Positions 4,164 through 26,247 of a stretch of DNA of 64,000 nucleotides are shown here, one piece after another (positions within the stretch are counted from its first letter, which is position 1; each line of letters opens with the position of its first letter). A program made the translations under genes and the position numbers. This DNA comes from an uncultured Nitrospiraceae bacterium (lineage in GTDB: Bacteria; Nitrospirota; Nitrospiria; Nitrospirales; Nitrospiraceae), in contig CAVSTP010000003.1 of NCBI GenBank assembly GCA_963730935.1, forward strand, positions 416,001-480,000. Direction: 5' to 3'. The notes beneath the pieces are model-generated. The model had not been told where the DNA came from, made no database searches, and was given only the letters and a program-made list of their open reading frames with translations.

Positions 4164-4303
4164 CATATCCATGCCCCACCCCTAGATTGAACCCGCAAGC
4201 CGGAGAGAAGCATCAGTGTCACCTAACCGCGAGGCTTATATTTGAGGGAATCGTGGCAGATCAAGGAAGAAGTCGGAGTTGTTCAAGCGCGCAGGCTAGT
4301 CGC

Positions 4304-4867
4304 TCATTCAGATTTTATTGTGGGCTGCTCACAGCTAACACCCTGAGATGCTTTCAGCCCCTCGGGTAGAGCTATCGGCGTCCCACACGCGGCATCAATT
4401 TGATCTTCAGTGAGAAAGCTGGTGTTTTTGAAATTGGCGCCATCAATGTGTGCGTTCTCCAGATGGGTACCCAATAACATGGCCCCTTCAAAGTTCGCAT
4501 TCACCAACTTTGCGCGACTCAGATTTGCGCCAAATAGCATCGCATCTGTGAAATCTGCACCCTCCAGATCAGCGTCGCGTAGGTCAGTTCCAGCTAACAT
4601 CGCCCCGCGAAGATTTTCGCCTTTGAGATGCGCTTTTCTAAGCCGCTTGCCAGCGAGCATTTGCCCGGGAGGGACCGGAGGGTGTCTCGATTCCTCCTTC
4701 ACCTCAACTTCTACAATGTAAGGCTCGAGAGACTCATGCAAGCAACCGAGAGGCGCGGAGAGCACCATTATCAGCCCGCATGGACCCAAAAATCTCCTCG
4801 ACCTCTTCAACTGAAGCATGTCCAAGATCCCGGATATTTGCCTATTGGTGGCTGACGGCATGATCAT
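4304..4867 (-). CDS. Pentapeptide-repeat protein, probable lipoprotein
   Basis: A(D/N)LxxA repeats (ENLRGAMLAGTDLRDADLEGADFTDA) and a hydrophobic stretch ending PLG-C. Start uncertain. Confidence 0.85.
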   Translation of the reverse strand: MIMPSATNRQISGILDMLQLKRSRRFLGPCGLIMVLSAPLGCLHESLEPYIVEVEVKEESRHPPVPPGQMLAGKRLRKAHLKGENLRGAMLAGTDLRDADLEGADFTDAMLFGANLSRAKLVNANFEGAMLLGTHLENAHIDGANFKNTSFLTEDQIDAACGTPIALPEGLKASQGVSCEQPTIKSE

Positions 4868-4939
4868 GAACCGTTGCCGTGCTTGGACGGTAGGGCGGCA
4901 ATCAAAAACACATCTTTCGGCCAGCTCATTGACAGGATC

Positions 4940-6655: not shown

Positions 6656-6966
6656 GAGCCTTTCGTTCTATGTGTCATTACTGATGAACGAATCTAGGGT
6701 CGCTCCCATTAAATCGGTCAAGCGAACGAGGCGCTACTAGGGTTTCCACCAGTCCCATTTGGCTCCCATACTTATATTGATGGCGGCGCACTTAGCGAGA
6801 CTCTAGGTGAAAAACGGCGAGGCGAGGCCAGCGTAAGCAGCGTATTAGCCATGGAACTTGAAACTGGAGGTTTCCGTCGATAAAGGAAATGGGACCTCTG
6901 TCTGTCAGGATGGGTGCTTAGTGCAAGGTGCTTCGAGGAACGTACGGCTGTCAGGGCGTCGCGCCC

Positions 6967-7036
6967 TCAGGGCGGGTCAATCGTCAAATTAAGCTGCTTG
7001 TTGGCTGTTTGCGGCGTCGGTGCTGGCCGAATCCTA
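6967..7036 (-). pseudogene. Orphan relic of the C-terminal cap of an Ig-lipoprotein gene
   Basis: Translates as DS..PTPQTANKQLNLTIDPP*, matching the ends of paralog 1 (DSSTPTPQTASKLIELKIKR) and paralog 2 (DSAPTPQIVHKQLGLLINPP). Confidence 0.8.
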
Positions 7037-7072
7037 GTGCGGGGATGTAAGCAAGTCTTTCTATAGATTAGT

Positions 7073-9343
7073 TTATGGGTTGATCATGATCGATAGATCT
7101 TGCGTGTCTGATAGTCCTCCTGCGTCCTGAACCTGGACGGTAAATGACGCTAGGCCTGCCGCAGTGGGCGTTCCTGAAATCACGCCGGTCGGCGCATCTA
7201 AATTCAGGCCCGCTGGCAGCGTCCCCGTGGAGATACTCCAGGTCAGCGGTGCCGTCCCTCCGGTTGCCTGTAACGTCGTTGGACCGTAGGCCACATTGAG
7301 GGTTCCATCTGGGAGCGACGTGGTCGTGATATCAGGCGGGTTAGGTGGGGGCGCGGCAGCGTTGATCACGATCGACAGATCCTGCGTGTCAGTTTGACCC
7401 AACGTGTCAGTGACTCGTACGGTGAAATTCGAGGTTCCTGCGGTGGTCGGATTGCCTGAAATCACACCAGCCGGGCTTAGAGAGAACATCGCTGGGAGCG
7501 ATCCACCAGCGAGCGTCCAGGTGCGTGTCCCTACGCCTCCCGTTGCTTGTAGCGTCTGATCGTAGGCCTGGCCGACAGTTCCTGCCGGAAGCGATGTGGT
7601 CGTGATATCCGGTGGGTTAAGGAGGTTGATCGTGATCGACAGATCTTGTGTGTCACTTTGTCCGAATGCGTCTTGAACTCGGACAGTAAAATTCGATGTG
7701 CCTGCTGGCAGGATCGGCGTCCCTGCAATCGTGCCGGTCGTCCCACTCAAAGTTAGGCCCGGTGGCAGTGTCCCTCCGGAGATGCTCCAGGTCCGTGCCC
7801 CCGTCCCTCCGGTCGCTGCCACAGTCTGGCTATAGGCCTGACCGATGCTTCCACCGGGCAGCGAGGTCGTCGTGATATTTAGCGGAGGGGGTAGGTTGAT
7901 CGTGATCGACAGCGCCCGCGTGTCAGACTGACCCAACGAATCTGTGACCCTCACCGTGAAGGGGAAGGTTCCTTGAGTGGTTGGAGTGCCTGAAATGATT
8001 ACACTGGGTCCAGTTAGGGGAGCGATCGTGAGACCGGGTGGGAGCGATCCCACAGTGATACTCCAGGTAAGTGTGCCCATCCCTCCGGTTGCTTGCAATG
8101 GCTGATTGTAAAGCTGACTGACCGTGCCTGCCGGCAGCGAGGCCTGTACTATCTGTGGGGGGTTGTCTGTCCCAACGAGAATAGAAAGCGCTTGCGTATC
8201 ATTCTGTCCGAAAGTGTCTGCAACGCGGACGGTGAACGGGAAGCTGCCGGTTGCAGTCGGCGCTCCTGTGATCGTGCCGGTCGTCCCACTCAAAGTTAGG
8301 CCCGGTGGCAGTGTCCCTACGGAAATGCTCCAGGTCAGCGGTGCCGTCCCGGTCGCCAGCACAGCCTGGTTATAGGTCTGGCCGATGGTTCCAGCGGGCA
8401 GCGAGGTGGTCGTAATATTCGGCGGGCTGGGCAAGTTAACGGTAATCGAGAGAGCACGGGTGGCAAACTGCCCCAGGGTGTCTGTGACCCTCACCGTGAA
8501 GTTGAAGGTTCCTTGAGTGGTTGGAGTGCCTGAAATGATTACACTGGGTCCAGTTAGGGGAGCGATCGTGAGACCCGGTGGGAGCGATCCCACAGTGATA
8601 CTCCAGGTAAGTGTGCCAATGCCAGCGGTTGCCTGTACCGTCGTCGGACCGTAGGCCACATTGACTGTTCCACCAGGCAGCGAGGTGGTCGCAATTCCTG
8701 GCGGGCTCTGCGGGTCAATGCGAATCGAGAGAGCTCGCGTATCCTGTTGTCCACTTGTGTCTGCAACGCGGACAGTGAATGAGGAGTTGCCGGTTGCAGT
8801 CGCCGTTCCTGCGATCACACCGGTATTAGGATCCAGACTGAGACCCGCGGGAAGTGTGCCTGAGGTGATGCTAAAGGTCAGCGGTCCGAAACCACCAACG
8901 GTTTGAACAGGCTGGCCATAGACCGCGCCGATATTTCCGGCCGGCAGCGAGGTCGTCGTAATTGAGAGCGGGGGTTTGATTGTTAAGCTAAGAGATTGCT
9001 CTATTGTTTGGGGAGGGATTGAGGAATCTGCCAGGGTAAATGTATGCAAAGTGGTTCCCACCGTGCCTGATGTCCCGGTGATCGCGCCGCTTTGCGTGTT
9101 GAACGAAAGACCGGAAGGAAGCGCCGGTGTGACCGACCACAAGTACGGCAGCGTGCCTCCCGAACCACCCACTGAAGCCGAATAGGGTTGGTTGACTTGC
9201 CCCTCGGGAAGTGAGGTGGTGACGATCGCCAAACCTCCAGGGGTCGGGCCACTGTCACCACCGCAGCCGGTCAACCCTAAGATCGAAATACTAGAAAAAA
9301 TCACTGCACAAACAATATGACCGATGATGTTTCTACGCGTCAT
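7073..9343 (-). CDS. Lipoprotein with 8 putative Ig-like repeats, paralog 3
   Basis: Lipobox LTG-C GGDSGPTPG, eight modules and an internal near-exact duplication. Confidence 0.9.
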   Translation of the reverse strand: MTRRNIIGHIVCAVIFSSISILGLTGCGGDSGPTPGGLAIVTTSLPEGQVNQPYSASVGGSGGTLPYLWSVTPALPSGLSFNTQSGAITGTSGTVGTTLHTFTLADSSIPPQTIEQSLSLTIKPPLSITTTSLPAGNIGAVYGQPVQTVGGFGPLTFSITSGTLPAGLSLDPNTGVIAGTATATGNSSFTVRVADTSGQQDTRALSIRIDPQSPPGIATTSLPGGTVNVAYGPTTVQATAGIGTLTWSITVGSLPPGLTIAPLTGPSVIISGTPTTQGTFNFTVRVTDTLGQFATRALSITVNLPSPPNITTTSLPAGTIGQTYNQAVLATGTAPLTWSISVGTLPPGLTLSGTTGTITGAPTATGSFPFTVRVADTFGQNDTQALSILVGTDNPPQIVQASLPAGTVSQLYNQPLQATGGMGTLTWSITVGSLPPGLTIAPLTGPSVIISGTPTTQGTFPFTVRVTDSLGQSDTRALSITINLPPPLNITTTSLPGGSIGQAYSQTVAATGGTGARTWSISGGTLPPGLTLSGTTGTIAGTPILPAGTSNFTVRVQDAFGQSDTQDLSITINLLNPPDITTTSLPAGTVGQAYDQTLQATGGVGTRTWTLAGGSLPAMFSLSPAGVISGNPTTAGTSNFTVRVTDTLGQTDTQDLSIVINAAAPPPNPPDITTTSLPDGTLNVAYGPTTLQATGGTAPLTWSISTGTLPAGLNLDAPTGVISGTPTAAGLASFTVQVQDAGGLSDTQDLSIMINP
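7941..8617. repeat. Direct repeat of 137 bp (7941-8077 and 8481-8617), offset 540 bp
   Basis: Three mismatches by eye. The offset equals two Ig modules. Confidence 0.9.
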
Positions 9344-11842: not shown

Positions 11843-14026
11843 ATGCCAGCCGAAGTAGGGAGGGTTCCTCCTGGTCCCCATTTTTCCGCGTCGCCATCGC
11901 CCGGTGTGACTGACACCGGGTTGATCTGCCTCCTGATTTTGGCCCGCTTCTATGATCTGCCGGCCGACGGATCGCAACTGCGCCACTTGTACGCGCCGCC
12001 TGGGCAATTGCTCTCAGATACCGAACTGCTTCGTGCCGCCAAGCACTTGGGGCTCAAGGCCGGAGTGGTGAAGACGCAGTGGCAAAAATTAGCCAGCACG
12101 CCGTTTCCTGCGATCGCAAAGCTACAGGATGGCCGATATGTTGTACTCGCCAGGATCGACGGCGACAAGGCCCTGATTCAGGACCCCGTCGAGGGTCGTC
12201 CGCTCGTGTTGTCTCGTGAACAGTTTGAGTCGAAGTGGACGGGCGAACTATTGTTGTTCGCGAAGCGGGCGAATCTGCGTCAGGAGGATCTCAAATTTGA
12301 CTTCAACTGGTTCATTCCTGCCATCGTCAAATACCGCACGTTCCTTGGCGAAGTGTTCGTCGCCTCGTTCGTGTTGCAGTTATTCGCATTATTGACGCCC
12401 CTCTTCACGCAAGTCGTGATTGACAAGGTGCTAGTGCACAAGGGCTTTACGACCCTGCATGTGCTGGCGATCGGGATGGTCGCACTGGCCATCTTTGATG
12501 CCATGCTCGGCGGTCTACGCACCTATCTGTTTTCGCATACCACCAATCGGATCGACGTCGGGCTGGGCGCTCAATTGTTTCGCCACATTTTAGCCTTGCC
12601 GCTGGCCTATTTCGAAGCCAGGCGTGTCGGCGACACGGTGGCTCGGGTGCGTGAACTCGAACACATCCGGCAGTTCCTGACAAGCCATTCCGTGACAGTC
12701 GTGCTCGATCTCGTGTTTACGGTCGTGTTCCTGGTCGTCATGTGGTTCTACAGCTCTACGCTCACGATGGTTGTGACGGCGTCGCTACCATTGTATGCAC
12801 TGCTGTCGATCGCGATCACACCGACGATACGCGCTCGCCTGCACGAGAAGTTCAATAGGGGAGCGGAGAATCAATCGTTCTTGGTGGAGGCGATCAGCGG
12901 GATTCAGACCGTCAAGGCTCTGGCGGTCGAGCCGTCGCTGCTGCGCAAATGGGAAGAGCAGCTGGCGGGGTATGTGCGGGCAAGTTTCCGTGCAACGAGT
13001 CTCATTACCGTGGCCGGGCAAGTTGCAGGCTGCATCCAAAAACTCACAACCGTCGCCGTGCTATGGGTGGGGGCCTATCGAGTGATCGAAGGAGACCTCA
13101 GCATCGGGCAGTTGATCGCCTTTAACATGCTGTCGGCGCAAGTGACGGGACCGTTGCTGCGATTGGTTAGTCTTTGGCAGGAGTTTCAGCAGGTGGGGAT
13201 TTCTGTGCAACGATTAGGCGATGTGCTCAACGCCCAACCGGAGCCATCGTACAAGCCGAATCGGACGACATTGCCCCAAGTCGCAGGACAGGTGACCCTC
13301 GAAGACGTGACGTTTCGCTATCGCCCTGGCAGTTCGGAGGTGCTCCGGAAGATTTCGTTCTCTGTCACTCCAGGCAGGGTCGTCGGCATTGTGGGGCGCT
13401 CAGGATCCGGCAAAAGTACGATTGCCAAACTGATTCAGCGACTGTATGTGCCGGAGCGTGGACGCATCCTCGTGGATAATGTTGATCTTGCGCAGGTCGA
13501 TCCGGCCTGGTTACGGCGGCAGGTGGGAGTGGTGCTTCAAGAAAACTTTCTCTTCAACAGTTCCGCGCGCGACAACATTGCGTTGACGGACCCCGGCTTA
13601 GCGATGGAGCAGGTCATTCAGGCGGCGAAGCTGGCGGGTGCGCATGAGTTCATTCTCAACCTGGCGGATGGCTATGACACCATGGTCGGCGAACACGGCT
13701 GTTCGCTTTCCGGTGGACAACGGCAACGCATTGCCATTGCAAGAGCTTTGGTCGCCAACCCTCGCATTTTGATTTTCGATGAAGCGACGAGCGCACTGGA
13801 TTACGAGTCCGAAGCCGTCATCCAAAAGAACATGGCGCAAATTTGCCAGGGACGGACCGTCTTCATCATCGCGCATCGGCTCAGCACGGTGCGGCCAGCC
13901 CATCGGATTTATGTGATCGATAAGGGCGAACTTGTCGAAGAAGGGTCGCACCAAGAACTTCTGCGTGCCAACGGTTTTTACGCACGCTTGTGTAAGTTGC
14001 AGGATAGCGGAACGGGCATGGCATAA
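11843..14026 (+). CDS. hlyB: Type I secretion ABC transporter, HlyB family (C39-like domain + TMD + NBD)
   Basis: FNWFIPAIVKYR, Walker A GRSGSGKST, signature LSGGQRQR, DEATSALD. The C39 Cys is replaced (DTGLICL). Confidence 0.95.
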   Translation: MPAEVGRVPPGPHFSASPSPGVTDTGLICLLILARFYDLPADGSQLRHLYAPPGQLLSDTELLRAAKHLGLKAGVVKTQWQKLASTPFPAIAKLQDGRYVVLARIDGDKALIQDPVEGRPLVLSREQFESKWTGELLLFAKRANLRQEDLKFDFNWFIPAIVKYRTFLGEVFVASFVLQLFALLTPLFTQVVIDKVLVHKGFTTLHVLAIGMVALAIFDAMLGGLRTYLFSHTTNRIDVGLGAQLFRHILALPLAYFEARRVGDTVARVRELEHIRQFLTSHSVTVVLDLVFTVVFLVVMWFYSSTLTMVVTASLPLYALLSIAITPTIRARLHEKFNRGAENQSFLVEAISGIQTVKALAVEPSLLRKWEEQLAGYVRASFRATSLITVAGQVAGCIQKLTTVAVLWVGAYRVIEGDLSIGQLIAFNMLSAQVTGPLLRLVSLWQEFQQVGISVQRLGDVLNAQPEPSYKPNRTTLPQVAGQVTLEDVTFRYRPGSSEVLRKISFSVTPGRVVGIVGRSGSGKSTIAKLIQRLYVPERGRILVDNVDLAQVDPAWLRRQVGVVLQENFLFNSSARDNIALTDPGLAMEQVIQAAKLAGAHEFILNLADGYDTMVGEHGCSLSGGQRQRIAIARALVANPRILIFDEATSALDYESEAVIQKNMAQICQGRTVFIIAHRLSTVRPAHRIYVIDKGELVEEGSHQELLRANGFYARLCKLQDSGTGMA

Positions 14027-14042
14027 GCCGAAGGCGCGAACA

Positions 14043-15434
14043 ATGGCGTTCGGTACGCTCGCGAGACATTGGACCATCTGGAAGACGACGTGGCAAGCCG
14101 TGTCGACTCGCGAACTAGGCACGGCACCAGGTGGGCGGGCCACGGAGTTCCTGCCGGCTGTGCTCGAGATCCAACAGGCGCCGCCATCTCCCATTGGCCG
14201 TGCAATCACATGGACCATTATCGCCGTATGCACTGCTGGAATTTTGTGGGCCACATTCGGGTGGATCGATATTGTCGCGACCGCTCAGGGGAAGGTTATT
14301 GCCAGCGGCTATTCCAAGGTCATTCAGCCCTACGAAACCGGTGTGATTGCGTCGATTCACGTGATAGATGGGCAGGTCGTAGCGCGTGGCGAGGTACTCA
14401 TCGAATTGGATCCGACACAAAACCGCGCAGATCACGATCGGGCGTCCAATGAATATCGCGCCGCGAAAGTCGATGCGGCTCGATTGCGGGCCTTGATCGC
14501 CGGCAAGAGCACCTTCGATGAACCTTCAGATGGGGATCCTCGGTATATCCTGCTCCAACAACAGCTGCTGCGTGACCAATTGACCGAATACCAGGCTCGC
14601 GTCGGTGCTGCTCAGCACCTGATCGGTCAACGCAGAGCGGCGCTCGATCAGACCAAAGAAAACATTCGCCGGCTGGAGGCCACGGTGCCGATGGAAACGG
14701 AGCGGGCGGATGCTTACAAGAAACTGCTCGAACACGATGCCGCCACGAAGCTCGATTTTCTGCAGGCCGAGCAGCAACGAATCGATAAGACCCAAGAACT
14801 AGCCGGACAGCGCAAGAAGCTCGTGCAAGACGCAGCCACACTCTCGGAGGCCGAAAACAATTATCGGGTTACTGTGACGGAGTTCCAGCAGGCCAAACAG
14901 GCGGAGTTGTCCACGATCGAGACGAAAGCTGGTTCGCTGGCTCAAGACGTGACGAAGGCGGGACAGAAGGCGGACTTGCAACGATTGATGAGTCCCATTG
15001 ACGGCGTCGTGCAGCAACTCTCGGTGCACACGGTCGGTGGTGTGGTGACGCCGGCTCAGCAACTGCTGATCGTCGTACCTCAAGATCATCCTGTCGAAGT
15101 GGAAGCCCAAGTGGAGAACAAAGATGTGGGGTTCGTGAGAGAGGGGCAGCCGGTCGAGATCAAGGTGGAAACGTTCTTGTTCACGCTCTACGGCACGATT
15201 CCCGGGAAGGTGTTGTCAGTTTCTGGCGATGCCGCGGCGATCGAAAAAGTCGGTCTCATCTATCCCACGAGAGTGAGCATGGACCGGTCCACAATCGAAG
15301 TCGACAGCAAGCAGGTGAATCTCTCGCCGGGCATGGCCGTCACGGTGGAAATCAAGACGGGGAAGCGCCGCTTGATCGAATACCTTTTGAGTCCTCTCCT
15401 CAAATCCGTCAAAGAAAGCCTGCGGGAGCGGTAG
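14043..15434 (+). CDS. hlyD: HlyD family type I secretion membrane fusion protein
   Basis: EFLPAVLEI, one TM, coiled coil, SPIDGVVQQL, LSPGMAVTVEIKTGKRRLIEYLLSP. Confidence 0.95.
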   Translation: MAFGTLARHWTIWKTTWQAVSTRELGTAPGGRATEFLPAVLEIQQAPPSPIGRAITWTIIAVCTAGILWATFGWIDIVATAQGKVIASGYSKVIQPYETGVIASIHVIDGQVVARGEVLIELDPTQNRADHDRASNEYRAAKVDAARLRALIAGKSTFDEPSDGDPRYILLQQQLLRDQLTEYQARVGAAQHLIGQRRAALDQTKENIRRLEATVPMETERADAYKKLLEHDAATKLDFLQAEQQRIDKTQELAGQRKKLVQDAATLSEAENNYRVTVTEFQQAKQAELSTIETKAGSLAQDVTKAGQKADLQRLMSPIDGVVQQLSVHTVGGVVTPAQQLLIVVPQDHPVEVEAQVENKDVGFVREGQPVEIKVETFLFTLYGTIPGKVLSVSGDAAAIEKVGLIYPTRVSMDRSTIEVDSKQVNLSPGMAVTVEIKTGKRRLIEYLLSPLLKSVKESLRER

Positions 15435-15438
15435 CAAC

Positions 15439-16812
15439 ATGTCGAGCCCGCTCGTTTTGTCACTCACCGAACGCTTGCGGGCCTTTGGGTCCTTGATCGG
15501 CATCGTCATTGCTTTGTCTGTACCTAATGGTGTGAGCTGGGCAATCAGTGACCAGACAGCACCAGAGAAGGCTGCGCCGCTACCGCCTCTGTCGCTCACG
15601 TTGCGCGGTGCGTTGGCAGCCGCAGTGGACAATAACCCGGATGTGCAGCTGTACAAAGAGCGTATCGAAGCGGCACACGGCCAAGTTCGAACACAACTCG
15701 GTGCGTTGCTGCCGAATCTCTCTTCGAATGTGCGACAGTCCAGGCAAACAGTGTTCCTCGGCACCTTTGGTCTTGCGCCGGTGCGGAGCGATCCCTTCAG
15801 TATTTTCGACCTCCGAGTCAACGGGTCGCAAAATGTGGTCAGCGTCAGCTTGATCCAGCGCTGGCGAGCGTCGCGAGAGAACCTCTATATCGCCGAGTTC
15901 GAATCGGATGCGAAGAAGTACGACACCATGGCGAGCGTGGCCCTCGCCTATATGGAAGGGCTGAAAGCCATGGGGATGGTCAAGATGCGCGAATCCAATC
16001 AGCAGATCATGAGTGAGCTGCTGAGCTTGGTCAAACAACGGCAGAAGACCGGCGTTGCAACGGGCATGGACATTGCGCGTCTGGATGCGCAACTCGCCAA
16101 TGAGAAGCAATTGGCCGCAGCATCGCGCTACGACGTGCAACACGCCAAACTGAACCTGATGAATCTGCTCAACTTGCCGTACGAAACACCATTGGCCTTG
16201 CAGGATGAATTCAAGACGGAGATGTACGAACAGCTGGAGTCTCAGGCTGCCGTCGAAGAGGCGCTCGTCAATCGGCCAGAAGTGCAGGCGCAGTTCACTC
16301 GAATCAAAGCCACCGAGCTGACGTATTCATCCATTACCGGAGAGCGGTTGCCGTCGCTGGTCGCACAGGGGGATTATGGGCTGATCGGGAATCGATGGAG
16401 TAACACGCTTGAGACGTACAATATGGCCTTGTTGCTGCAGATTCCGATTTTCGATGGCGCTCAGCGCGAAGGCCGAATTGCTGAGGCTCGAAGCAATCTA
16501 CGCCAGGAGGCGCTTCGAATGCGTTCCGTCCTCAATCAGGTCAAAATGGAAGTACACGATGCGCTTGCCGGAATCGTGGCGGCTAAGGAACAAGTCGCGG
16601 TCGCACAGGCTGGGCTGCAAATGGCCATTAAAGAACTTGAACTGGCGCGTGAACGCTACTCCGTCATCACGGCGGCCAGCTATTTCGAGTTAACCAATGG
16701 ACTGTATTCCGTGTCGAGAGCCCGAGAAAATCTCGTAAATGCGCTTTTTCAGTTGAACGCCTCGCGCGTCAATCTCGCCCGATCGACCGGCGCGCTGCAA
16801 TCGCTCAACTAG
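15439..16812 (+). CDS. TolC family outer membrane protein
   Basis: Signal peptide, two outer-membrane efflux repeats (NNPDV...LLPNLS; RPEV...RLPSL...IPIFDG), 4 nt after hlyD. Confidence 0.9.
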   Translation: MSSPLVLSLTERLRAFGSLIGIVIALSVPNGVSWAISDQTAPEKAAPLPPLSLTLRGALAAAVDNNPDVQLYKERIEAAHGQVRTQLGALLPNLSSNVRQSRQTVFLGTFGLAPVRSDPFSIFDLRVNGSQNVVSVSLIQRWRASRENLYIAEFESDAKKYDTMASVALAYMEGLKAMGMVKMRESNQQIMSELLSLVKQRQKTGVATGMDIARLDAQLANEKQLAAASRYDVQHAKLNLMNLLNLPYETPLALQDEFKTEMYEQLESQAAVEEALVNRPEVQAQFTRIKATELTYSSITGERLPSLVAQGDYGLIGNRWSNTLETYNMALLLQIPIFDGAQREGRIAEARSNLRQEALRMRSVLNQVKMEVHDALAGIVAAKEQVAVAQAGLQMAIKELELARERYSVITAASYFELTNGLYSVSRARENLVNALFQLNASRVNLARSTGALQSLN

Positions 16813-16962
16813 AACCTACCTTGATTGGCCCCCTCCTCTTCATTCCTCTTGACCTCAAGAACCCATTCGGCGTACAAGCGCGCACTGTGCTGTGGCCTCC
16901 CTAATAGCGTAGGAGTCTCGGCAGACTTGGATGACGAAACATCTTATGGGAGGAATTCGGCT

Positions 16963-17409
16963 ATGCATCTCGGGCGCATCGGAATGGTTTTGGCGCTGAT
17001 TGAAATACTTTCCGTCATCGGGTGCGCGAGTCACAAACACTTCCCCGAATCATCCCTTACCGGAGGAGTGTTCGAGGTAAGAATTGACAACTTGCTGACG
17101 CCACAGTCGGTGACCGCAAAACGTGGTGACGAAGTGAAGTGGATCAATACGAGCCATGCCCCGGTGGATGTTTCAGTAGTCCAAACGCGGGAGGAGCTCA
17201 TCTCCTGTCAGAGGGGGTTTGCGTCAACAAATTTGGGGTATTTCTTCGGCACATCGGAATATGAGAACATTGTGATGGCGACAGTGCGCCCCAACGAATC
17301 CGCCAGCCTGTGCTTCGCCATCTCTGGAAAGTATGTCTATACCCTGCGCAAAGATCCTTCCAGAACCGGCTCACTCGATAGGATGAGTGGATCTATCACG
17401 ATCGAATAA
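16963..17409 (+). CDS. Lipoprotein with probable cupredoxin-like fold
   Basis: RBS GGAGG, lipobox VIG-C, PQSVTAKRGDEVKWIN...GKYVY...GSITIE pattern. Confidence 0.7.
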   Translation: MHLGRIGMVLALIEILSVIGCASHKHFPESSLTGGVFEVRIDNLLTPQSVTAKRGDEVKWINTSHAPVDVSVVQTREELISCQRGFASTNLGYFFGTSEYENIVMATVRPNESASLCFAISGKYVYTLRKDPSRTGSLDRMSGSITIE

Positions 17410-17412
17410 GAG

Positions 17413-19626
17413 TTAACGGTCGCTCCGGGGAAGTATTGGGAAACGGCGAGCTGTAATGAGCCTGCCCTCAAGCTCCGACGACGACGCTGACGTGGACTCT
17501 TGGGTCCTTCCCTCAGGAAGCGTGATGAGAAAGCTTGTCCCGCTTCCCACGGTACTGCGAGCTTCGACCGTGCCGCCGTGTTCTTGAATGATCTGATGGA
17601 CGATGGAAAGGCCGAGGCCTGTCCCCACACGATCGGTGCTTTCATGTTTCGTGGTAAAGAACGGGTCAAAGATATGCGGGAGATCTTCAGGCGCAATTCC
17701 ACAGCCAGTATCCGCCACTTCGATTTGCACCCATCCACTCTTGTCGAGACGGACCACGCGGCGAGTCGTGACGGCTAGGTGCCCTCCCGTCTTCGCCATG
17801 GCGTCAATGGCATTCATGGCAAGATTCATGATCACCTGCTTAATCTGTTGGCGATCGACCAGCATGGCTGGGAGATCTTCGGCGAGGTGTTTCTCAATGG
17901 TGATCCCCAGCTTGTCCGCTTTGACCTCGATAAATTGCAGGCACGAGGAGACGATGTTGTTGAGCGATTCTGCGGAAAACTTCGGTTTCATATAACGTGC
18001 GTAGTCAAGAATTTCTTCGATGAGACGTTCAATACGGGCAAGATCGTCGACCACCTGGGCGCTGAACGAATCCATAAAATAGGGATCGTCTCGTCGCGAC
18101 GGTACCAATTGGATGAACGTACTAATCGATGTCAGAGGGTTGCGCACTTCGTGAGCAAATCCGCCTGCAATGGCTTCCAATGAACGGAGCCGATCGGCGC
18201 GCCGCAGCAGGAGTTGGGTGTGCTTCCACTCTTCATGCAAGACGGCATTTTCGAGGGCGATCGCGGCATTGTCTGCAAGCGAGCGGAGCAGGCTGAGCTC
18301 GTCGTGCGAATACAATCCCAGGCATGGCTTATGTCCGAGATTGACGAAGCCGATCAAGCTCTTCTTATTGACAAGCGGCAAGCATACTTCAGAGCCCAGT
18401 TGTGTCATGGTCTCAACCAGTGCGGCGGCCAATCGCTCGTCGAATCCTGGCGAACGTTGCTGGAGTTCTTCTTTGACGATCGGCTGATTGCACGCCAACA
18501 GGTAATTTGTAAAAGGTTCGTTGTTCATGACCCGCATGGGGCTCCGCTGCTCGTTGAGCCCGCGCGATGCCTTCGGCACATAGCACCCTTTTTCCTTGTC
18601 AAAGAGAAACAGCGAGATCTTCTCGATGCCCATGACTGTCTGGAGCGTATCTACGATTTCGGCTTGCAGATTGGCAAGATCGAGCTTCATCACCATGGCA
18701 TGCGCGAATCGGGTTAACGTCTCGTAGGCGTCATGCCGGCTGGGGAAAAACGCTCTATTGACGGCAGATTGAAGGCGTGGCTGGAAAATGAGGAGCAAGA
18801 CGGTGAAGGCGACAGTCGTGAGAGCCAGGAGCAACGAGACTGTAACGGGAGGGAGGTCATCCAGCGCATAGCCGAGGAAGACGACAAGGAGCGTGAAGGG
18901 GATGAGCGGCAGATAGACGGCGCTCCGAGACACGAGGAGGGCTGCATCCAGGAGCCGGTACCGGAGAATCGAAATTGTGATGACGGCTGTCAGCAGAAAG
19001 ATGGGAATGTATCCAAAGGGATAGATTTCATAGCCGAACGCCGGGAAGAAATCGATCGAGCCTGTATAGGCAATGACAAAGGCAGGCAGAAGGAATTTGA
19101 TCTGCTGACGCTTAATGGGAGTCGTGACGGTGCGATACGTGTGGATGTAGTCGGTGAAGGCCACGGCCATATACGAGAAGAAGATGATGAAAAATGGCGC
19201 ACTTGCCGCTCCCCATTGCGGGAAATAGCCCCACCAAAATCGATGGACGCCTGCGACAAAGTCTTCACGGAAGAGGACGGCCCCAGCCATAAGCGTTGCG
19301 AGTGCATAGCCTATCCATATCGAACGGCGACGTTGGAGTTGGAGAAACTCGGCTGAGAATCCGTAGAATGCGAGAGAGATGTACATGACACCGACATTGT
19401 CGAGTTTAAACCAGTGCAACGCTGTTTTGGCATCCGTTGAGCAAAGACCGATGCTGGTCGCGTCGAGCCAGATGGCGATGCTGGCACAGAGAACGAGGAA
19501 ATGGCGATGTGCGGGGGATTGTCTATTGGATCGGTAAACGAGGAATCCCAACGCAAGGGTGACGATCCCCACGAGAAAGATGGGAATGGCATGGACGTTG
19601 ATGAAATAGGTTGAAGCCGCGACCAT
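17413..19626 (-). CDS. Sensor histidine kinase: HisKA_7TM-like membrane domain + GAF + HisKA + HATPase
   Basis: Multi-TM N-terminus, GAF (CLPLVNKKSLIGFVNLG), H-box FAHEVRNPL, N-box NLAMNAIDA, DPFFTTK, GTGLGL. Confidence 0.92.
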   Translation of the reverse strand: MVAASTYFINVHAIPIFLVGIVTLALGFLVYRSNRQSPAHRHFLVLCASIAIWLDATSIGLCSTDAKTALHWFKLDNVGVMYISLAFYGFSAEFLQLQRRRSIWIGYALATLMAGAVLFREDFVAGVHRFWWGYFPQWGAASAPFFIIFFSYMAVAFTDYIHTYRTVTTPIKRQQIKFLLPAFVIAYTGSIDFFPAFGYEIYPFGYIPIFLLTAVITISILRYRLLDAALLVSRSAVYLPLIPFTLLVVFLGYALDDLPPVTVSLLLALTTVAFTVLLLIFQPRLQSAVNRAFFPSRHDAYETLTRFAHAMVMKLDLANLQAEIVDTLQTVMGIEKISLFLFDKEKGCYVPKASRGLNEQRSPMRVMNNEPFTNYLLACNQPIVKEELQQRSPGFDERLAAALVETMTQLGSEVCLPLVNKKSLIGFVNLGHKPCLGLYSHDELSLLRSLADNAAIALENAVLHEEWKHTQLLLRRADRLRSLEAIAGGFAHEVRNPLTSISTFIQLVPSRRDDPYFMDSFSAQVVDDLARIERLIEEILDYARYMKPKFSAESLNNIVSSCLQFIEVKADKLGITIEKHLAEDLPAMLVDRQQIKQVIMNLAMNAIDAMAKTGGHLAVTTRRVVRLDKSGWVQIEVADTGCGIAPEDLPHIFDPFFTTKHESTDRVGTGLGLSIVHQIIQEHGGTVEARSTVGSGTSFLITLPEGRTQESTSASSSELEGRLITARRFPILPRSDR

Positions 19627-19632
19627 GATGCG

Positions 19633-21351
19633 TTACACCGTGCGCGCCCGAGCGACCCGGTGTAAATCCTCCTCGGTGACGTAACCGACAGAATTGCGAA
19701 ACGGCGCCAGGCGAAACCCCAGCAAACGGCCCATGGCGGTGATGTGCTCAGCCTGGGTGGGATCGGCCTTTCCAAGGGAGTAGTGTCCGGTCCATCCAAT
19801 CGCGGTCAAAATCATGGTTTCCGACAGACAGCCGAGGGCTTCTTCTGCTCCCACGTCCAGATCGAAGTGCACATCAATATCATTAGGCGTTCTGACGATG
19901 GCGGATTCGATGACGAGGACATCGGGCCGCTGGAGTGGAACGTCCTCGGACACGTTCTTCGGCTGTGCGGCATCGATGACAATGGCACCAGCTTTCAGGT
20001 GAGCCGCGGTCAATAGAATATAGGGGTTATTCGTCATGGCGATAACAACATCCGCCTTCGACACTTGGTCGAGACTCGTCATGCCTTTGATGATTGAAGG
20101 CTGGTCGCCCAACTCTGAGATGAGACTTTGAAGTGCATCCTTCTTGATATCGATGATGAACAGTGTGCCGACAAGCCGGGCAAGAATCTTCGAGCAAGCG
20201 GAACCTACCGATCCGGCACCTCCGACAATCGCCACGGTGGCATGCGGCAGACTGAGATTGGTCAGGGCGGCTGCATGAAGGACATTCTGGACGGCAACAG
20301 CGGCCGATTGGGCGTTTCCTGTGGTCAATCCGAGCCGGACCTTGCCCTCCAGCTCTTGTCCATCCCGGGTGAGGATCGAGGTGAATGCGCCCAATCCTGC
20401 GATGGTCGCTCCCATTTTTTCCGCCAGGCGAACGGTCTGCCACACACGTAGGCGAGCGAGTCGGGGGTTGCGAATCATCTGTTCTGTCGTCAGCGGTGAA
20501 ATCAGAATGGCACCCATCGTCGGGGTTCCATTCGCCAGGGTCAGGCCAGTGATGTAGGAGGCCACCAACGGCCATTGATACCGAATCCAGCGTTCGACGA
20601 CATAGGAAGGCAGCCGGCTCGCAAACGGGAACTTACGCGCAACATCGCTCAGTGTGCGGGGATGACCAATGAAGGCAAAAGTAATGGGCGTGACGAGGAG
20701 ACGGGCGAAGGGAGCAGGCAGGAATCGGACGATCAGGTCGCGAAAGACTTGAAGGAGGTGCCAAGCTCCTAGCCATACGGCAGGCCAGGATACGCGTAAT
20801 GGAGCTTGATCCGTCTTCTTGGGTGCCTCTCGGACGGACGGTGACGCCAGGGGGTGGGCCAGACGAGCCGACTCAGCCTTACGATCCACTGTGGGCCTGT
20901 GAGCGGGATGATAAGGATTGTCTGTAATGAATAAGGATAGAATTGACCGGGGATTCGTCGTTACGAGACCCGCTCGGGCTGATGCTCGTGCAGGTCCCTC
21001 CGGCATTTCCAGGCTCTGGAGATAGGTTTCCAGCTCCTGCAAGGCAGACTCAAGGACCAGCCGTATGGTCTGCCCCAAAGCGTCGAGAGCGATGTCGACC
21101 CTAAATCGAGTGGGCGAATCGCCCTCATCCTCGGTCACTGCGGTCACGCGTCCCGACAACGGCATGTAGGCGACATTCTGGCTGTAGCACAGAACGACAG
21201 TCACTACAGCGCCTGGTGAGGAGACGCAATCAGTCAAAAATGAGATCCGATCGAGGCCGAGTTCTTGAGTGACCCCTCGCGCCTGGCTTCCTCCAAGATC
21301 GACCACGACGGGCAGGCTTACGGCGAGCTGACTCGAAACGGTACTTCCCAC
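19633..21351 (-). CDS. Acyl-ACP reductase-like (COG5322-type) oxidoreductase with an extra N-terminal domain
   Basis: FAFIGHP, GLGAFTSI, TTGNA, Rossmann motif VGGAGSVGSAC and GCLSETMIL (position of the catalytic Cys) parallel cyanobacterial AAR. About 220 aa of N-terminal extension. Confidence 0.85.
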   Translation of the reverse strand: MGSTVSSQLAVSLPVVVDLGGSQARGVTQELGLDRISFLTDCVSSPGAVVTVVLCYSQNVAYMPLSGRVTAVTEDEGDSPTRFRVDIALDALGQTIRLVLESALQELETYLQSLEMPEGPARASARAGLVTTNPRSILSLFITDNPYHPAHRPTVDRKAESARLAHPLASPSVREAPKKTDQAPLRVSWPAVWLGAWHLLQVFRDLIVRFLPAPFARLLVTPITFAFIGHPRTLSDVARKFPFASRLPSYVVERWIRYQWPLVASYITGLTLANGTPTMGAILISPLTTEQMIRNPRLARLRVWQTVRLAEKMGATIAGLGAFTSILTRDGQELEGKVRLGLTTGNAQSAAVAVQNVLHAAALTNLSLPHATVAIVGGAGSVGSACSKILARLVGTLFIIDIKKDALQSLISELGDQPSIIKGMTSLDQVSKADVVIAMTNNPYILLTAAHLKAGAIVIDAAQPKNVSEDVPLQRPDVLVIESAIVRTPNDIDVHFDLDVGAEEALGCLSETMILTAIGWTGHYSLGKADPTQAEHITAMGRLLGFRLAPFRNSVGYVTEEDLHRVARARTV

Positions 21352-21772
21352 CAGTGCGTTATTCCTCCCGGCTCAATGCTGTGTTCCTTGACAGAAGCCA
21401 CCTCTCCTGAACCCTGCATTCTTTAGTACAGAGCACTCACGTGCTGTGGGCAATCAATATTGCGTGATAGTGGCTTTTTGTCAATGCGACGGAGAGGAAA
21501 AGGGGTGCCTGTAGGACAAGAACGGATCTTACGTCTAATCGCCGATAGACATATGATCTGCACGACTCGGAACGAAAAAACTGTATGAACCGGGGCGCGT
21601 TGTTGGTATACGGGAACAGGCAGGTGTTTTCACCTACACCCCCCATGACAGCTTCAAAGGGGATTTGTCTTGGCACGCAACGTAAAGTGCGGGAGTCTTT
21701 AGGACGTAAATGCTGAACCGGTGACATGATACGTAGAACAACCTGTATGACGCAGTCGACAGCGAAAGAACA

Positions 21773-23167
21773 ATGCTACAGATGTGGTTGAGACGAGTCA
21801 TCGTGGCGGCAAGTCTCGCTCTCGCTTGTCTGTCTCCGACGGTTGGTTCGGCGGGGGCCATACGGATCTTCGATCAGAGCGCCTCGGGAACGGCTCAAAG
21901 CGGCGCCTTTGCCGCACAGGCGGACGATCCCTCAGCCGTCTATTTCAATCCAGCTGGCTTGACGCAATTGAGAGGGGTGCAAACCTCCTTCGGCGTCATG
22001 TTGCTCGGTGGACATACCACATACACAAGTCCATCGGGTGGGACTGCCAGGGGGGATTTTGGCGGAAGCGTGGCCGTTCCTCCGCCAATCAATTTGTATT
22101 TCACTGCGAACTTGAAAGATCTCGGGGTCACGGCGCTCGGTGATCTCAGTGCTGGCCTTGGCGTGGTCTCTCCGTTCGGGGTTCTCTACCGTTACCCTGA
22201 CGACGGCCCTTTTTCGACGGCCGTGACGCGACAATCGCTACCCCTCATCGATATCAAACCCACGCTCGCCTATAAGCTGAACGACCAACTCTCGGTTGGC
22301 GTTGGTGCGGACATTTATACCTTTGCGAGCTTTTGGGGAAGCGGACAGGCTGTGACGAAATTCAACTCATCCGGCGGCCCCGGCCTACCGCCTCCCGGCA
22401 CGCGGATGGAGGTCAACGGCGGGGATACGGCTGCCGGGTTCAATCTGAGTCTCTTGTACACGCCGTTCCGGAATGAAGATGGAAAACCACTGGCAAATGT
22501 CGCCGTGATTTATCGCAGTCAGGCTACGATGCATCTGAATGGCAATTTCCTCGCAAATGGCGGCCTGGTCGCTGATGCCTCGACGACGCTCGTGTTGCCG
22601 CAGATCTTTACCGGCGGGATGTCGATCTGGCCGATCAGAGATCGCAACCATGAATGGAAGTTGGAGTTAGACGTGGATATGACTGGATGGAAATCTGTCC
22701 GGAACACGGACGTGCATCTGTCCAATGGCACGACCATTCCATTCGCTCAGAACTGGCGGAATGCTTATACGACGATGGTTGGCACGGAGTACAAGTGGCT
22801 CAATCTGGAGAAACTGCCGGCATGGGAGGTAGCGCTCCGTGGAGGCTATTGGCACTCGCAGACACCGATTCCTGACAGCTCGTTTCTGCCCACCATTCCC
22901 GATGCGGATCAGCATGCTATTTCAATTGGGACGGGTTTCCTCTGCAAAGGCAACGGCCACTTTCTGGGGCTGATTGAATGCGGCAAGGCCGAGGGAGGAA
23001 TACTGAGACCCAAAGCAATCGGTCTGGATTTGGCGTACCAAGCGATCTTCTATGAAACGCGAACTGTCAGTGGCAATCTCAATCCTGTGGCCATTCCCGG
23101 CGTCGTCAACGGGACGTATCAGACGACCTTACACGTTGGGATGATTAACCTTCGGGTAAACTTTTAA
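21773..23167 (+). CDS. OmpP1/FadL/TodX family outer membrane transporter
   Basis: Signal peptide, AQADDPSAVYFNPAGLTQL hatch motif, beta-barrel ending in F. Confidence 0.92.
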   Translation: MLQMWLRRVIVAASLALACLSPTVGSAGAIRIFDQSASGTAQSGAFAAQADDPSAVYFNPAGLTQLRGVQTSFGVMLLGGHTTYTSPSGGTARGDFGGSVAVPPPINLYFTANLKDLGVTALGDLSAGLGVVSPFGVLYRYPDDGPFSTAVTRQSLPLIDIKPTLAYKLNDQLSVGVGADIYTFASFWGSGQAVTKFNSSGGPGLPPPGTRMEVNGGDTAAGFNLSLLYTPFRNEDGKPLANVAVIYRSQATMHLNGNFLANGGLVADASTTLVLPQIFTGGMSIWPIRDRNHEWKLELDVDMTGWKSVRNTDVHLSNGTTIPFAQNWRNAYTTMVGTEYKWLNLEKLPAWEVALRGGYWHSQTPIPDSSFLPTIPDADQHAISIGTGFLCKGNGHFLGLIECGKAEGGILRPKAIGLDLAYQAIFYETRTVSGNLNPVAIPGVVNGTYQTTLHVGMINLRVNF

Positions 23168-23658
23168 GGTTTAAAATGTCTCGTCCGATCGACCGGCAGG
23201 CTGCAATTCCTTACTTAGCATGGTGAGACATAATACGATCTTGCTCAGACTGGCGAGCGGTGTTGGATGGCCGTCGGCGTTTAGGTCCCCACCTGATAGC
23301 GAAGTGGTAGGAAAAGACGGAGAGGATTGGCGGAAGGAATTTCAGGAAGTTCGATAAAACCTGTACGTTTGCCACACAGATCAGAAGACATAAGTCATTG
23401 AAAAAGCTCACACTTGTTTGCCGGATCTTCAACCTGCTTGCTCGTGTCGTCAATCTTTTTTATAGGTCTTACAGACCAATAGCTAGACAAGGTCGCGATT
23501 TCAAATACTTAGAATTATCGTGTTTGTCAGTTTTTTTACATTCGTAAAGGGAAGGGCAGAACGATCCCCCTAACAGGGCGAATGGTACACGACGGTCGGC
23601 ATGGAGGCGGGCAACTCAGCATCTCGATTAGTCCGTCGGAAGTATGCTAGCGTAGTGA

Positions 23659-24378: not shown

Positions 24379-26247
24379 ATGTACCTTCAGTTTTATGGTC
24401 TTACCAAGGAGCCATTTAAGACCACCCCCGACATCGATTTTCTCTTCCTCAGTCCTAGCCACAAAGAAGCGTTAGCCTGCATTGAGTATGGCATTCGGCA
24501 GCGTAAAGGCTTCGTTGCGATCACCGGCGAGGTGGGAGTCGGTAAAACAATGATCCTTCGGTCCTATCTCGACAAGGTGGGTCCAGAAAAACAGAAAACC
24601 ATTTATATCCTGAATCCCAAGGTCAGCTTCGACAATCTTCTCAGCACCATTCTCAGGGAATTGGGGGCGGAAGCCATTGCAGGGCAAGCAACGGACAAGC
24701 TCAACCAATTGCATGAGGTGTTGATCGCTGAATACCGCAACGACTATACGGTCGTTCTCCTGATCGATGAAGCCCAGAACATACCGATCGAGACGCTGGA
24801 AAGTATCCGCATGCTGTCCAACCTGGAAACGGCTACGGAGAAACTAATTCAGATCGTCCTGGTGGGTCAGCCCGAACTGGACGAATTACTCAACCGTCAT
24901 GAGTTGCGCCAGGTTCGTGAGCGGATTGGGCTTCAGGCAAGGATTGCACCGCTCACCAACGCTGAGAGTGTCGCCTACATTGATCATCGCCTCAGTCTTG
25001 TGAGCAGCGATCCACGGAAGGTCTTTTCAAAGCAAGCGCTCAATCGAATCGTTGGGTCGGCCAAGGGTATTCCGCGAAGATTGAACATTCTTTGTGATAG
25101 CGCCCTCATCACAGGATACGGCTATCAGCAACCGAGGATTTCGGGGAAGATTGCGAAAGAGGTGATTGCTGATCTCAATACACATCAAAAATACCAATCT
25201 GAACCTGCACGGAGACTCCAGCCGCGGTACGCATTGGGCCTGCTGAGTGTCGCCGTCGTCGTCGTCTTCTATTTCATGAATGTATCGGCCATACCAGAGA
25301 TCCCGATCAGTAAACCATCAACGGTTCAAAATGGCATCACGGTCAGTGAACCATCAACGGTTCAAAATGGCGGCACGGTCAGTAAGCCGTCAGCGGTTCA
25401 AAATGGCGAGCACCCAAAGACTAGTGTCAGTAGTCTGGAGACGGGTCAACACATGGCTCCAGTCGCTGGCCACGCAGAACCCATGCCACCGGCACGCGTG
25501 GTTAGGGTGCTCGATGCTACAGCGGAGACTGATTTATCCCCGGCTGAGAGGATGGAATTAAGTGAGACGGCCAGGCTTTTGGCCGTTCTTTTGGATTCCG
25601 GAAGGGTCGTGATCGGACGAGCGCAGGCGACGATCAATAACCCGAGACTGGAGGACAAAGGGTTTTCTTCGAGCGTCTTTGAAGGCCAACTGAGAAAAGA
25701 GTTTCAGGCAAGAACTCGACATGATCTGCACAATCTTGCCGCCGCCCCCATGCCGGAGTCTGCTAAGCCCTTGCTCCTGCGGCTGTCGTTTTTCATGCAG
25801 AAGGCCGTCCATGATGTGCAGCCCGACATCAATAAGAAGGGAATTGGCTTCAAAGGGTTCATTCCCGCGACGTTTGCAACGCAAGTAGCTGAGCGCTTCT
25901 CGAAGGACACAGGGTTAACATTGCGACAGATTGGTCCGCCCGGCGCAGAACCGCGAAACCCGAACAACAAACCGGATGACCAGGAGGAGCTACTACTCTC
26001 CGCCGTTCAGAAAAATCATCCTCGGGTTGGAGATCATATTGTCGAGCAACAGTTGTCTGACAGAAGTGGTGTTCGTGTCTTGCTTCCGCTTTTTTACAAC
26101 AAACAATGTCTTGCCTGTCATGGAAGTCCCAAGGGAGCGGTCGATATCTCCGGATATGAAAAGGAAGGCTTCAAAGAGGGAGATCTGGGAGGCGCCATTT
26201 CGATTGTGCTTTCTGCTCAGAACAAACTGGCGAGGAGCGGCGAATGA
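24379..26247 (+). CDS. ExeA/GspA-like AAA ATPase fused to a DUF3365 (Tll0287-like) heme c domain
   Basis: MYLQFYGLTKEPF, Walker A GEVGVGKT, Walker B LLIDEAQ, GIPRRLNILCD, one TM, then RNPNNKPD...CLACHG...GDLGGAISI. Confidence 0.88.
   Translation: MYLQFYGLTKEPFKTTPDIDFLFLSPSHKEALACIEYGIRQRKGFVAITGEVGVGKTMILRSYLDKVGPEKQKTIYILNPKVSFDNLLSTILRELGAEAIAGQATDKLNQLHEVLIAEYRNDYTVVLLIDEAQNIPIETLESIRMLSNLETATEKLIQIVLVGQPELDELLNRHELRQVRERIGLQARIAPLTNAESVAYIDHRLSLVSSDPRKVFSKQALNRIVGSAKGIPRRLNILCDSALITGYGYQQPRISGKIAKEVIADLNTHQKYQSEPARRLQPRYALGLLSVAVVVVFYFMNVSAIPEIPISKPSTVQNGITVSEPSTVQNGGTVSKPSAVQNGEHPKTSVSSLETGQHMAPVAGHAEPMPPARVVRVLDATAETDLSPAERMELSETARLLAVLLDSGRVVIGRAQATINNPRLEDKGFSSSVFEGQLRKEFQARTRHDLHNLAAAPMPESAKPLLLRLSFFMQKAVHDVQPDINKKGIGFKGFIPATFATQVAERFSKDTGLTLRQIGPPGAEPRNPNNKPDDQEELLLSAVQKNHPRVGDHIVEQQLSDRSGVRVLLPLFYNKQCLACHGSPKGAVDISGYEKEGFKEGDLGGAISIVLSAQNKLARSGE
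25309..25407 (+). repeat. 36-bp tandem repeat, about 2.75 copies (S[KE]PS[TA]VQNGxTV)
   Basis: Units start at 25309, 25345 and 25381. Confidence 0.9.

Follow-up and report, generated by a model that had tools for sequence, protein, structure and literature searches.

In several bacterial signalling systems a synthase that makes its signal from an acyl thioester is encoded beside a membrane kinase, namely CqsA/CqsS, LqsA/LqsS, RpfF/RpfC/RpfG with the diffusible signal factor (DSF), and PhcB/PhcS with 3-hydroxypalmitic acid methyl ester (3-OH PAME). The CqsA and LqsA synthases depend on pyridoxal phosphate (PLP), and PhcB is a methyltransferase. In the agr and ComQXP pherotypes of Gram-positive bacteria, a variable block with the signal-making gene and the N-terminal part of the sensor is exchanged between conserved flanks. 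The cyanobacterial enzyme AAR reduces acyl-acyl carrier protein (acyl-ACP) to fatty aldehyde and is normally paired with an aldehyde-deformylating oxygenase (ADO). FadL imports hydrophobic molecules, in some bacteria also long-chain acyl-homoserine lactones (AHLs). Here we report on a gene cassette in a stretch of 64,000 nucleotides, in the following called the window, from an uncultured Nitrospiraceae bacterium (GenBank assembly GCA_963730935.1, contig CAVSTP010000003.1, positions 416,001–480,000), a family placement with which the names of close homologues agree. It comprises the gene of an AAR/PigE-type thioester reductase, which ends 6 nt before the gene of an orphan histidine kinase with a seven-transmembrane (7TM) sensor of the HisKA_7TM family, and a divergent gene for a FadL-family channel 421 bp away (Table 1). 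A preliminary description had noted this arrangement, including the Rossmann motif and the GCLSE cysteine of the reductase and an intergenic region of ~420 bp, and had proposed a circuit that makes, imports and senses a fatty aldehyde or alcohol and may control neighbouring surface and secretion genes. Alignments and Pfam searches confirm the arrangement itself.

The cassette follows the same logic of a synthase beside a membrane kinase as the CqsA/CqsS, LqsA/LqsS, Rpf and Phc systems. An HD-GYP output lies nearby, as it does in the DSF system, and one of the alternative enzyme classes described below (LuxD with a methyltransferase) includes the type of enzyme to which PhcB belongs. On the other hand, the synthase of the window is not a PLP enzyme, a crotonase or LuxI, its sensor is HisKA_7TM, and five enzyme classes are exchangeable. 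As no PLP-enzyme family of Pfam or NCBIfam matches the reductase, the cassette is not a member of CqsA/CqsS or LqsA/LqsS; LuxI (PF00765) had no match in the genome, but no positive control matched in this search either. The exchange of a block resembles agr and ComQXP, but here unrelated fatty-acyl enzyme folds are swapped and not variants of one peptide. PrsK (TIGR02916) of the PEP-CTERM systems, whose stimulus is described as obscure (excerpt of PMC1569441), has the same full-length 7TM-GAF-HisKA-HATPase layout (E 1.5e-40) and an NtrC-type partner. However, the window kinase scores 139.5 bits against a cut-off of 300, has no PrsR or PrsT neighbours and is paired with a lipid enzyme; it is thus not a PrsK. 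In the full-text literature searched, which largely leaves out subscription journals, neither a ligand for HisKA_7TM, a domain of bacteria and archaea, nor a paper linking AAR-like or the other four enzyme classes to HisKA_7TM receptors was found. Within this literature the cassette is a real, undescribed module.

We suggest, with a probability of roughly 0.6, that the cassette is one of a set of exchangeable synthase–receptor cassettes, plug-in units that would make and sense small molecules derived from fatty acids. Among 244 Nitrospiraceae genomes at least 90% complete (including the genome of the window) the reductase is patchily distributed and occurs in 25. A 7TM domain sharing at least 57% identity with that of the window is encoded in every one of them (in two only residues 3–90 were matched), and its gene lies directly downstream of the reductase in 24 genomes and ~570 nt away in one. 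As kin are not independent, these 25 co-occurrences stand for tight coupling and not for many origins. The cultured strain Nitrospira moscoviensis (locus L027) has the reductase cassette, and in one genome (G210, 9% contamination, 640 contigs) a 48% 7TM match and no reductase were found.

More distant 7TM matches are present in 62 further Nitrospiraceae genomes. We examined 31 of these loci, picked for genus spread, with the largest genus and its 30 matching genomes represented by only one. Five have PAS-type or other architectures without such an enzyme. The other 26 contain the window kinase family; two end at a contig edge, one is the G210 locus, and 23 have an enzyme beside the receptor. 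Hence, a lipid enzyme adjoins the receptor in 23 of the 24 informative non-reductase loci of this kinase family. The slot is occupied by enzymes resembling 3-hydroxy-3-methylglutaryl-CoA (HMG-CoA) reductase in seven loci, by UndA-like enzymes of the haem-oxygenase-like diiron type in seven (UndA E 1e-33), by a LuxD-like thioesterase (1THT, E 1e-20) with a methyltransferase in six and by FabH-like enzymes in three; most of them carry a PilZ domain like the window reductase. In L203 a UndA-like gene is found in the same layout as in the window, with a divergent FadL 75% identical to that of the window. Genomes G219 (reductase) and G218 (HMG-CoA-reductase-like) use one chromosomal site for their different enzymes, with flanking genes 85–90% identical. 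Their kinase cores are 83–100% identical whereas the first 7TM domains share only 17–43%, and the first 7TM domain of G219 is 52–67% identical to that of the window. Likewise, where receptors have cores 84–95% identical but different enzymes, their first 7TM domains are 24–35% identical. On the level of sequence, we could show in this way that the unit of the window is one of five interchangeable enzyme and sensor-domain units which in Nitrospiraceae all fit the same kinase family.

The first 7TM domain of the receptor tracks the enzyme class. Receptor trees were built from 36 labelled and two unlabelled receptors, omitting L219, L220 and L214 as truncated. The enzyme class changes four times, the minimum, on the first-7TM tree as compared to 13 times on the tree of the GAF-kinase core from the same 36 receptors. 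Every class forms one side of a branch on the first-7TM tree (support 97–100 with the two unlabelled rows ignored), whereas on the core tree the monophyly of every class is rejected by approximately unbiased (AU) tests (p ≤8e-5, omitting the unlabelled rows and the long branch L227). In the 21 receptors with two 7TM domains there are four changes on the first and 11 on the second domain, with a mean of 12.6 after shuffling. Class profiles trained on Nitrospiraceae only could also be applied to other lineages. There, the reductase-class profile claims 34 of the 36 reductase-adjacent 7TM domains (14 of 16 clusters) as compared to 7 of the 28 other 7TM domains in those loci, with margins as small as 7–47 bits for one subtype, and all three receptors held out of training were assigned to their correct class. 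Between lineages the class match persists at ~30–40% identity, and it is kept with a divergent enzyme gene (L227) and with a gene inserted between enzyme and receptor (L057).

An improbable explanation for this co-segregation is a pairing at the protein level or hitchhiking: the enzyme would be a co-sensor docked to the 7TM domain, or both genes would be transferred as neighbours with no link by a ligand. The genes are adjacent between two conserved recombination anchors, and the extra N-terminal helical hairpin that marks the receptor-linked reductases as a subfamily (R204/D205 in 23 of 24) could dock on a membrane protein. Recombination would also move enzyme and first 7TM domain together even if uncoupled, because both sit between the shared PilZ domain and the shared kinase core, and linkage alone thus explains part of the co-transfer. 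It does not, however, explain the class match across distant lineages, with the divergent gene and with the inserted gene, and a separate docking site would be required for each of five unrelated enzyme folds. A predicted complex of reductase residues 186–572 with receptor residues 1–470 scored 0.00 and is not used as evidence.

A wider survey comprised the 80 best of 243 loci from genomes and the 80 best of 158 from metagenomes. Clustering of these 160 loci at 65% identity gave 33 clusters, of which five with less than 500 nt downstream were set aside. The 7TM gene lies directly behind the reductase in 19 of the 28 informative clusters, a share that is inflated since the patterns used for searching were derived from the linked subfamily and only best-scoring loci were used. 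The linkage on which the proposed circuit depends is thus conserved here as well as in the 25 Nitrospiraceae genomes. The linked clusters span several phyla and a GC content of 0.33–0.62; record titles of reductase loci include Elusimicrobiota, Omnitrophota, Planctomycetia and Clostridia, although some labels of metagenome-assembled genomes may be wrong. The receptor outputs vary across lineages and consist of a kinase, an HD-GYP domain or no enzymatic domain that could be found. Of the nine unlinked clusters, seven make up a distinct reductase clade (support 100), mostly from Bacillota/Armatimonadota, with no 7TM gene. The other two, L050 and L059, lie within the linked subfamily and have a different sensor-type domain after the reductase; a V4R-like domain takes the place of the 7TM domain at L050:9052-12009 (Pfam E 0.004, below the cut-off), and a look-alike at L059:9159-9638 was judged by eye. 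Five loci (L028, L104, L133, L138, L146) have a cognate receptor of 409–494 amino acids (aa) with no kinase domain. In L028, L104 and L146 this receptor adjoins tandem 7TM kinases, with five 7TM genes in a row in L104, so that heteromeric receptors are possibly formed. Extra biosynthetic genes adjoin the reductase in some loci, namely a PilZ-FabF gene, a radical S-adenosylmethionine enzyme, an HMG-CoA-reductase-like gene or a second reductase (L056, L151, L153-L156, L158, L159; L048, L057; L105, L172; L168), and may tailor the signal.

Residues ~225–570 of the reductase match the PigE N-terminal domain and cyanobacterial AAR in sequence and fold. The GGAGSVG loop and Cys508 of the GCLSE motif align with AAR 6JZU (E 2e-18) and with the PigE N-domain 4PPM (E 6e-19), and Foldseek relates the fold to AAR with E 6e-14; the full-length model is poor (predicted local distance difference test, pLDDT, 57) and served for fold assignment only. 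Cys508 corresponds to the catalytic residues Cys294 of AAR (excerpt of PMC7089970) and Cys296 of PigE (PMC8341465) and is invariant in the 24 receptor-linked and 11 unlinked reductases compared. The enzyme shares fold, dinucleotide loop, TTG motif and catalytic cysteine with AAR (PDB 6JZQ, 6JZU, 6JZY; TIGR04058). It differs from AAR in its overall sequence (~25% identity), the NAD-type Asp401, Gln463 in place of Tyr247, the PilZ fusion, the receptor neighbour and the lack of ADO. The absence of ADO, stated in the preliminary description, extends to the whole genome (99.9% complete), where PF11266 had no match while the positive control Synechococcus matched. As TIGR04058 in addition scores only 88 bits against the curated cut-off of 449.7, we do not regard the enzyme as AAR proper in spite of the matching cysteine and loop. 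The best NCBIfam match is the PigE N-domain with 132 bits, which is also far below the cut-off of that family.

The thioester-reductase domains of PigE and TamH and the terminal amidation domain (TAD) of carmabin belong to the same superfamily, and the TAD shares the NAD-type aspartate. In contrast to these enzymes, the window reductase has no fused aminotransferase, nonribosomal peptide synthetase (NRPS) or pigment cluster. Domain scans found no class III aminotransferase fused to it or in the flanking genes, which argues against a bifunctional enzyme like PigE or TamH. The loop aspartate of the TAD (DDSG-P) is replaced by Ala461 in a DAAQP loop, a residue as small as that of AAR, and the gene stands alone with no NRPS, so that a TAD is rejected as well; the missing aspartate favours reduction over amidation as the predicted chemistry. 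Asp401 at the end of Rossmann strand 2 is present in 23 of the 24 linked homologues. In the TAD structure the equivalent aspartate blocks NADP(H) and CoA (excerpt of bioRxiv 2024.10.28.620694), and by this analogy the reductase is probably NAD-specific and would use NADH and acyl-ACP. The predicted preference for NAD(H) over NADPH would also suit uptake and catabolism or quenching, in which FadL imports a fatty aldehyde or lipid from outside, the receptor senses it and the enzyme oxidises it with NAD+ to load ACP or to destroy it. We regard this as rather unlikely, as the TamH thioester reductase reduces with NADH (excerpt of PMC9594044), the other enzymes found in the slot have off-loading or building functions (UndA-like decarboxylase, LuxD thioesterase with methyltransferase, FabH) and in one lineage the gene ahead of the reductase encodes a PilZ-FabF.

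The PilZ-like domain of the reductase, which the preliminary description had not included, is recognised with Pfam E 0.012 and with 0.93 to PilZ clusters of the Atlas, and relatives pass the cut-off of PF07238. Binding of cyclic di-GMP (c-di-GMP) by PilZ domains has the motifs RxxxR and D/NxSxxG as its hallmark. Both are absent from the window reductase and present in distant fusions, for example, P0127, P0136 and P0139. Other distant homologues are fused to a PlsC-type acyltransferase or a polyketide-cyclase/START domain (P0174, P0185, P0194, P0214, P0256; P0167, P0203, P0212, P0261).

According to Pfam and hydropathy, the kinase consists of the N-terminal 7TM domain (PF16927, 52 bits against a gathering cut-off of 28.6), two extra hydrophobic helices, a GAF domain (317–458), HisKA with His492 and HATPase_c. 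The 7TM profile has no sequence match in the PDB at E 1. Its AlphaFold2 (AF2) model is a seven-helix bundle with an outer beta-hairpin (pLDDT 92), which aligns with the 7TM domain of GABA-B over 221 residues (VIA Z 16.6, root-mean-square deviation 3.5), and G-protein-coupled receptor (GPCR) fold entries fill the top 50; Foldseek finds GPCRs with E 3e-4 and TM 0.58 for this predicted helical bundle. The modelled domain thus appears GPCR-like in fold, which shows neither function nor homology. A Lys/Arg bias of 13 versus 4 fits an outside N-terminus, and Y7, N10, T57 and W132, which are kept in cognate receptors, are predicted on the outer side. Rhodopsin-like Schiff-base sensing is rejected as there is no invariant membrane lysine, the best column being K74 in 13 of 22 cognate receptors.

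No response regulator gene is present in the cassette. One other kinase of the genome has a near-identical DHp helix (dimerization and histidine phosphotransfer; E 2e-33, next best 1e-9). It has no 7TM domain, adjoins recN and precedes an NtrC-type regulator and a receiver-HD-GYP protein in a resident locus (Table 1) whose arrangement is also found at L202, which holds a full LuxD-class cassette. The resident receiver-PAS-PilZ-LuxD-methyltransferase of 1394 aa is probably inactive, because an aspartate replaces the serine of L202 and LuxD, which we take to be the nucleophile, and the glycine motif is broken. The resident kinase family occurs in 229 of the 244 Nitrospiraceae genomes, mostly in the short form among the matches listed. 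Thus, we suggest that the orphan window kinase probably feeds the NtrC and HD-GYP locus whose own kinase has no sensor. Given this nearly universal short kinase without a sensor and the probably inactive resident enzyme, the window cassette looks like an add-on that would restore sensory input to the resident backbone.

By homology with the described enzymes, the acyl chain of acyl-ACP would be transferred to Cys508 and reduced by NADH, yielding a fatty aldehyde or, by further reduction, the alcohol; this product would not be consumed as neither ADO nor an aminotransferase is there. The hydrophobic product would leave the cell and return to the periplasm, aided by FadL where present. As suggested by the co-segregation, it would bind to the receptor encoded with the enzyme, at the first 7TM domain, and alter the autophosphorylation of His492. 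The near-identical DHp helix suggests that the phosphate might then pass to the sigma-54 activator and/or the receiver-HD-GYP protein of the resident locus, giving a transcriptional and a c-di-GMP output. A supporting precedent is 1-undecene, the product of UndA, which is reported to be an intraspecies signal in Pseudomonas (excerpt of PMC10614000).

Besides the inflated share of linked clusters and the part of the co-transfer owed to linkage, several observations weigh against exchangeable signalling cassettes. Trees of reductase and 7TM domain agree at shallow depth, whereas deep congruence is modest (Mantel r 0.35 with 0 of 2000 permutations, Spearman 0.19, 8 of 20 splits shared), and two of the 16 outside clusters contain a receptor of another class. 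Tyr247 in the acyl tunnel, which is essential in AAR (excerpt of PMC7089970), is Gln463 in 24 of 24 linked homologues, so that substrate or chemistry may differ from AAR, and the same fold also serves terminal amidation domains (excerpt of bioRxiv 2024.10.28.620694). Receptor residues specific to a class show no enrichment towards the outer face (8 out, 5 in, p 0.78). FadL is missing from most non-Nitrospiraceae loci.

The last two points would suit a private metabolic sensor, in which the receptor gauges the acyl-ACP or NADH status via the product in the cell's own membrane, in a variant with gating by c-di-GMP where PilZ is intact, and no cell-to-cell signalling takes place. Such a sensor also explains the pairing of enzyme and sensor domain equally well. 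Nevertheless, we consider it unlikely, as a housekeeping gauge is not expected to be patchy or swapped among five chemistries in close relatives. In addition, the UndA-class or LuxD-class profile scores strongly on receptors in reductase-only loci (L104:6894-9599, L150:1360-2967, L159:543-2843, L161:4518-6084), which with no such enzyme nearby are possible eavesdropping receptors, and the reductase-class receptor of G210 is likewise what eavesdropping predicts. Five enzyme-less PAS-type 7TM proteins also score best with the reductase-class profile (136–164 bits); they are not counted as solo receptors as second 7TM domains score 106–142 bits as well. Finally, FadL recurs from different FadL lineages. 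Among the 25 Nitrospiraceae genome loci that extend at least 1 kb upstream, 21 contain it. Of the 16 linked clusters outside Nitrospiraceae, four (L048/L057, L138, L146, L180) have a FadL, at varied positions and only 23–27% identical to the FadL of the window, leaving out weak matches in L028 and L171. FadL is therefore a recurrent, optional partner. Overall the proposed circuit is supported in part, and the signalling idea behind it gains strongly from the comparative linkage and from the sensor tracking the enzyme class.

Table 1. Features of the cassette in the window and of the resident locus elsewhere in the same genome (G000:C3)
Feature	Position	Strand	Basis or remark
Orphan sensor histidine kinase, 737 aa	17413..19626	-	Pfam domains, hydropathy, only PF16927 match in genome
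HisKA_7TM sensor domain, kinase residues 16-227	18946..19581	-	E 1e-13; AF2 model; trees
PilZ-like domain and AAR/PigE-type (COG5322-like) thioester reductase, 572 aa, putative signal synthase	19633..21351	-	
Cys508 codon of the reductase	19828..19830	-	equivalent of AAR Cys294 and PigE Cys296 by alignment
Degenerate PilZ-like domain, reductase residues ~10-114	21010..21324	-	Pfam, Atlas, relatives
Predicted sigma-70-type promoter (TTGACA, 17 nt, AATATT) facing the reductase-kinase pair	21456..21484	-	consensus match
FadL-family outer-membrane channel	21773..23167	+	PF03349 E 3e-38
40-nt imperfect direct repeat, left copy, end of TolC-like gene	16773..16812	+	
40-nt repeat, right copy, 80% identical, just past fadL	23179..23218	+	
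GAF-like kinase without 7TM, 419 aa	G000:C3:783402-784661		followed by NtrC-type regulator and receiver-HD-GYP protein; adjoins recN
Predicted partner regulators, sigma-54 activator (NtrC-type) and receiver-HD-GYP	G000:C3:780600-783405		NtrC gene at G000:C3:781957-783405
Resident locus L228	G000:C3:780600-788955		LuxD-methyltransferase, sensor-less GAF kinase, NtrC regulator, receiver-HD-GYP

The channel of the window scores 131.9 bits with PF03349 (gathering cut-off 29.7), is one of four such matches in the genome and is 57% identical to a second FadL encoded elsewhere. The reductase–kinase pair has a predicted promoter of the sigma-70 type, likewise an addition to the preliminary description, whose -35 box and spacing are kept in 8 of 8 aligned reductase loci. 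A pair of 40-nt repeats brackets the cassette together with a small gene (16825-17409), and no third copy was found in the genome with up to 9 mismatches allowed. The pair is also present in G030 and is a possible insertion scar. Five relatives showed no empty site, and reductase relatives were found neither in viral contigs nor, at E 1e-15, in plasmids. In L020 (G030:C3) reductase, kinase and hlyB are each split by frameshifts, by decay or sequencing error. Short pieces of all three cassette genes from related strains are present in four soil or rhizosphere metatranscriptome assemblies, in which no contig bridges the reductase–kinase junction by 31 nt on both sides; such contigs cannot show transcription.

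The window further encodes three tandem He_PIG Ig-repeat proteins (2305-9343), a HlyB/HlyD/TolC type I secretion system (11843-16812) and an ExeA-like/PEP-CTERM-associated AAA ATPase fused to a Tll0287-like domain (24379-26247). Control of the neighbouring surface and secretion genes by the cassette, as proposed earlier, is not borne out: of 30 Nitrospiraceae genome loci only three have type I secretion genes adjoining the cassette (three of the 13 loci that extend at least 5 kb downstream), and no intergenic sigma-54 site was found near them.

The swapping of enzymes with matching sensor domains suggests, as read from the sequences, a set of chemical signalling dialects. More tentatively, and with somewhat less than even confidence, we propose that bacteria use HisKA_7TM domains as receptors of GPCR fold for fatty-acid derivatives of their own making, and that Nitrospiraceae and several uncultured lineages have at least five chemical dialects, which are switched by swapping the block of enzyme and sensor domain on one kinase/c-di-GMP backbone. 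If true, the dialects would be an aldehyde or alcohol (AAR type), a 1-alkene (UndA type), a methyl ester (LuxD with methyltransferase) and the products of HMG-CoA-reductase-like and FabH-like enzymes. The cassettes supply ligand candidates for the HisKA_7TM sensor domain and a first role for the stand-alone AAR-like subfamily, and the five natural enzyme–receptor pairs are a ready cross-specificity matrix testable in E. coli. For the nitrite-oxidising bacteria of soils and treatment plants they predict a signalling system that is not based on AHLs.

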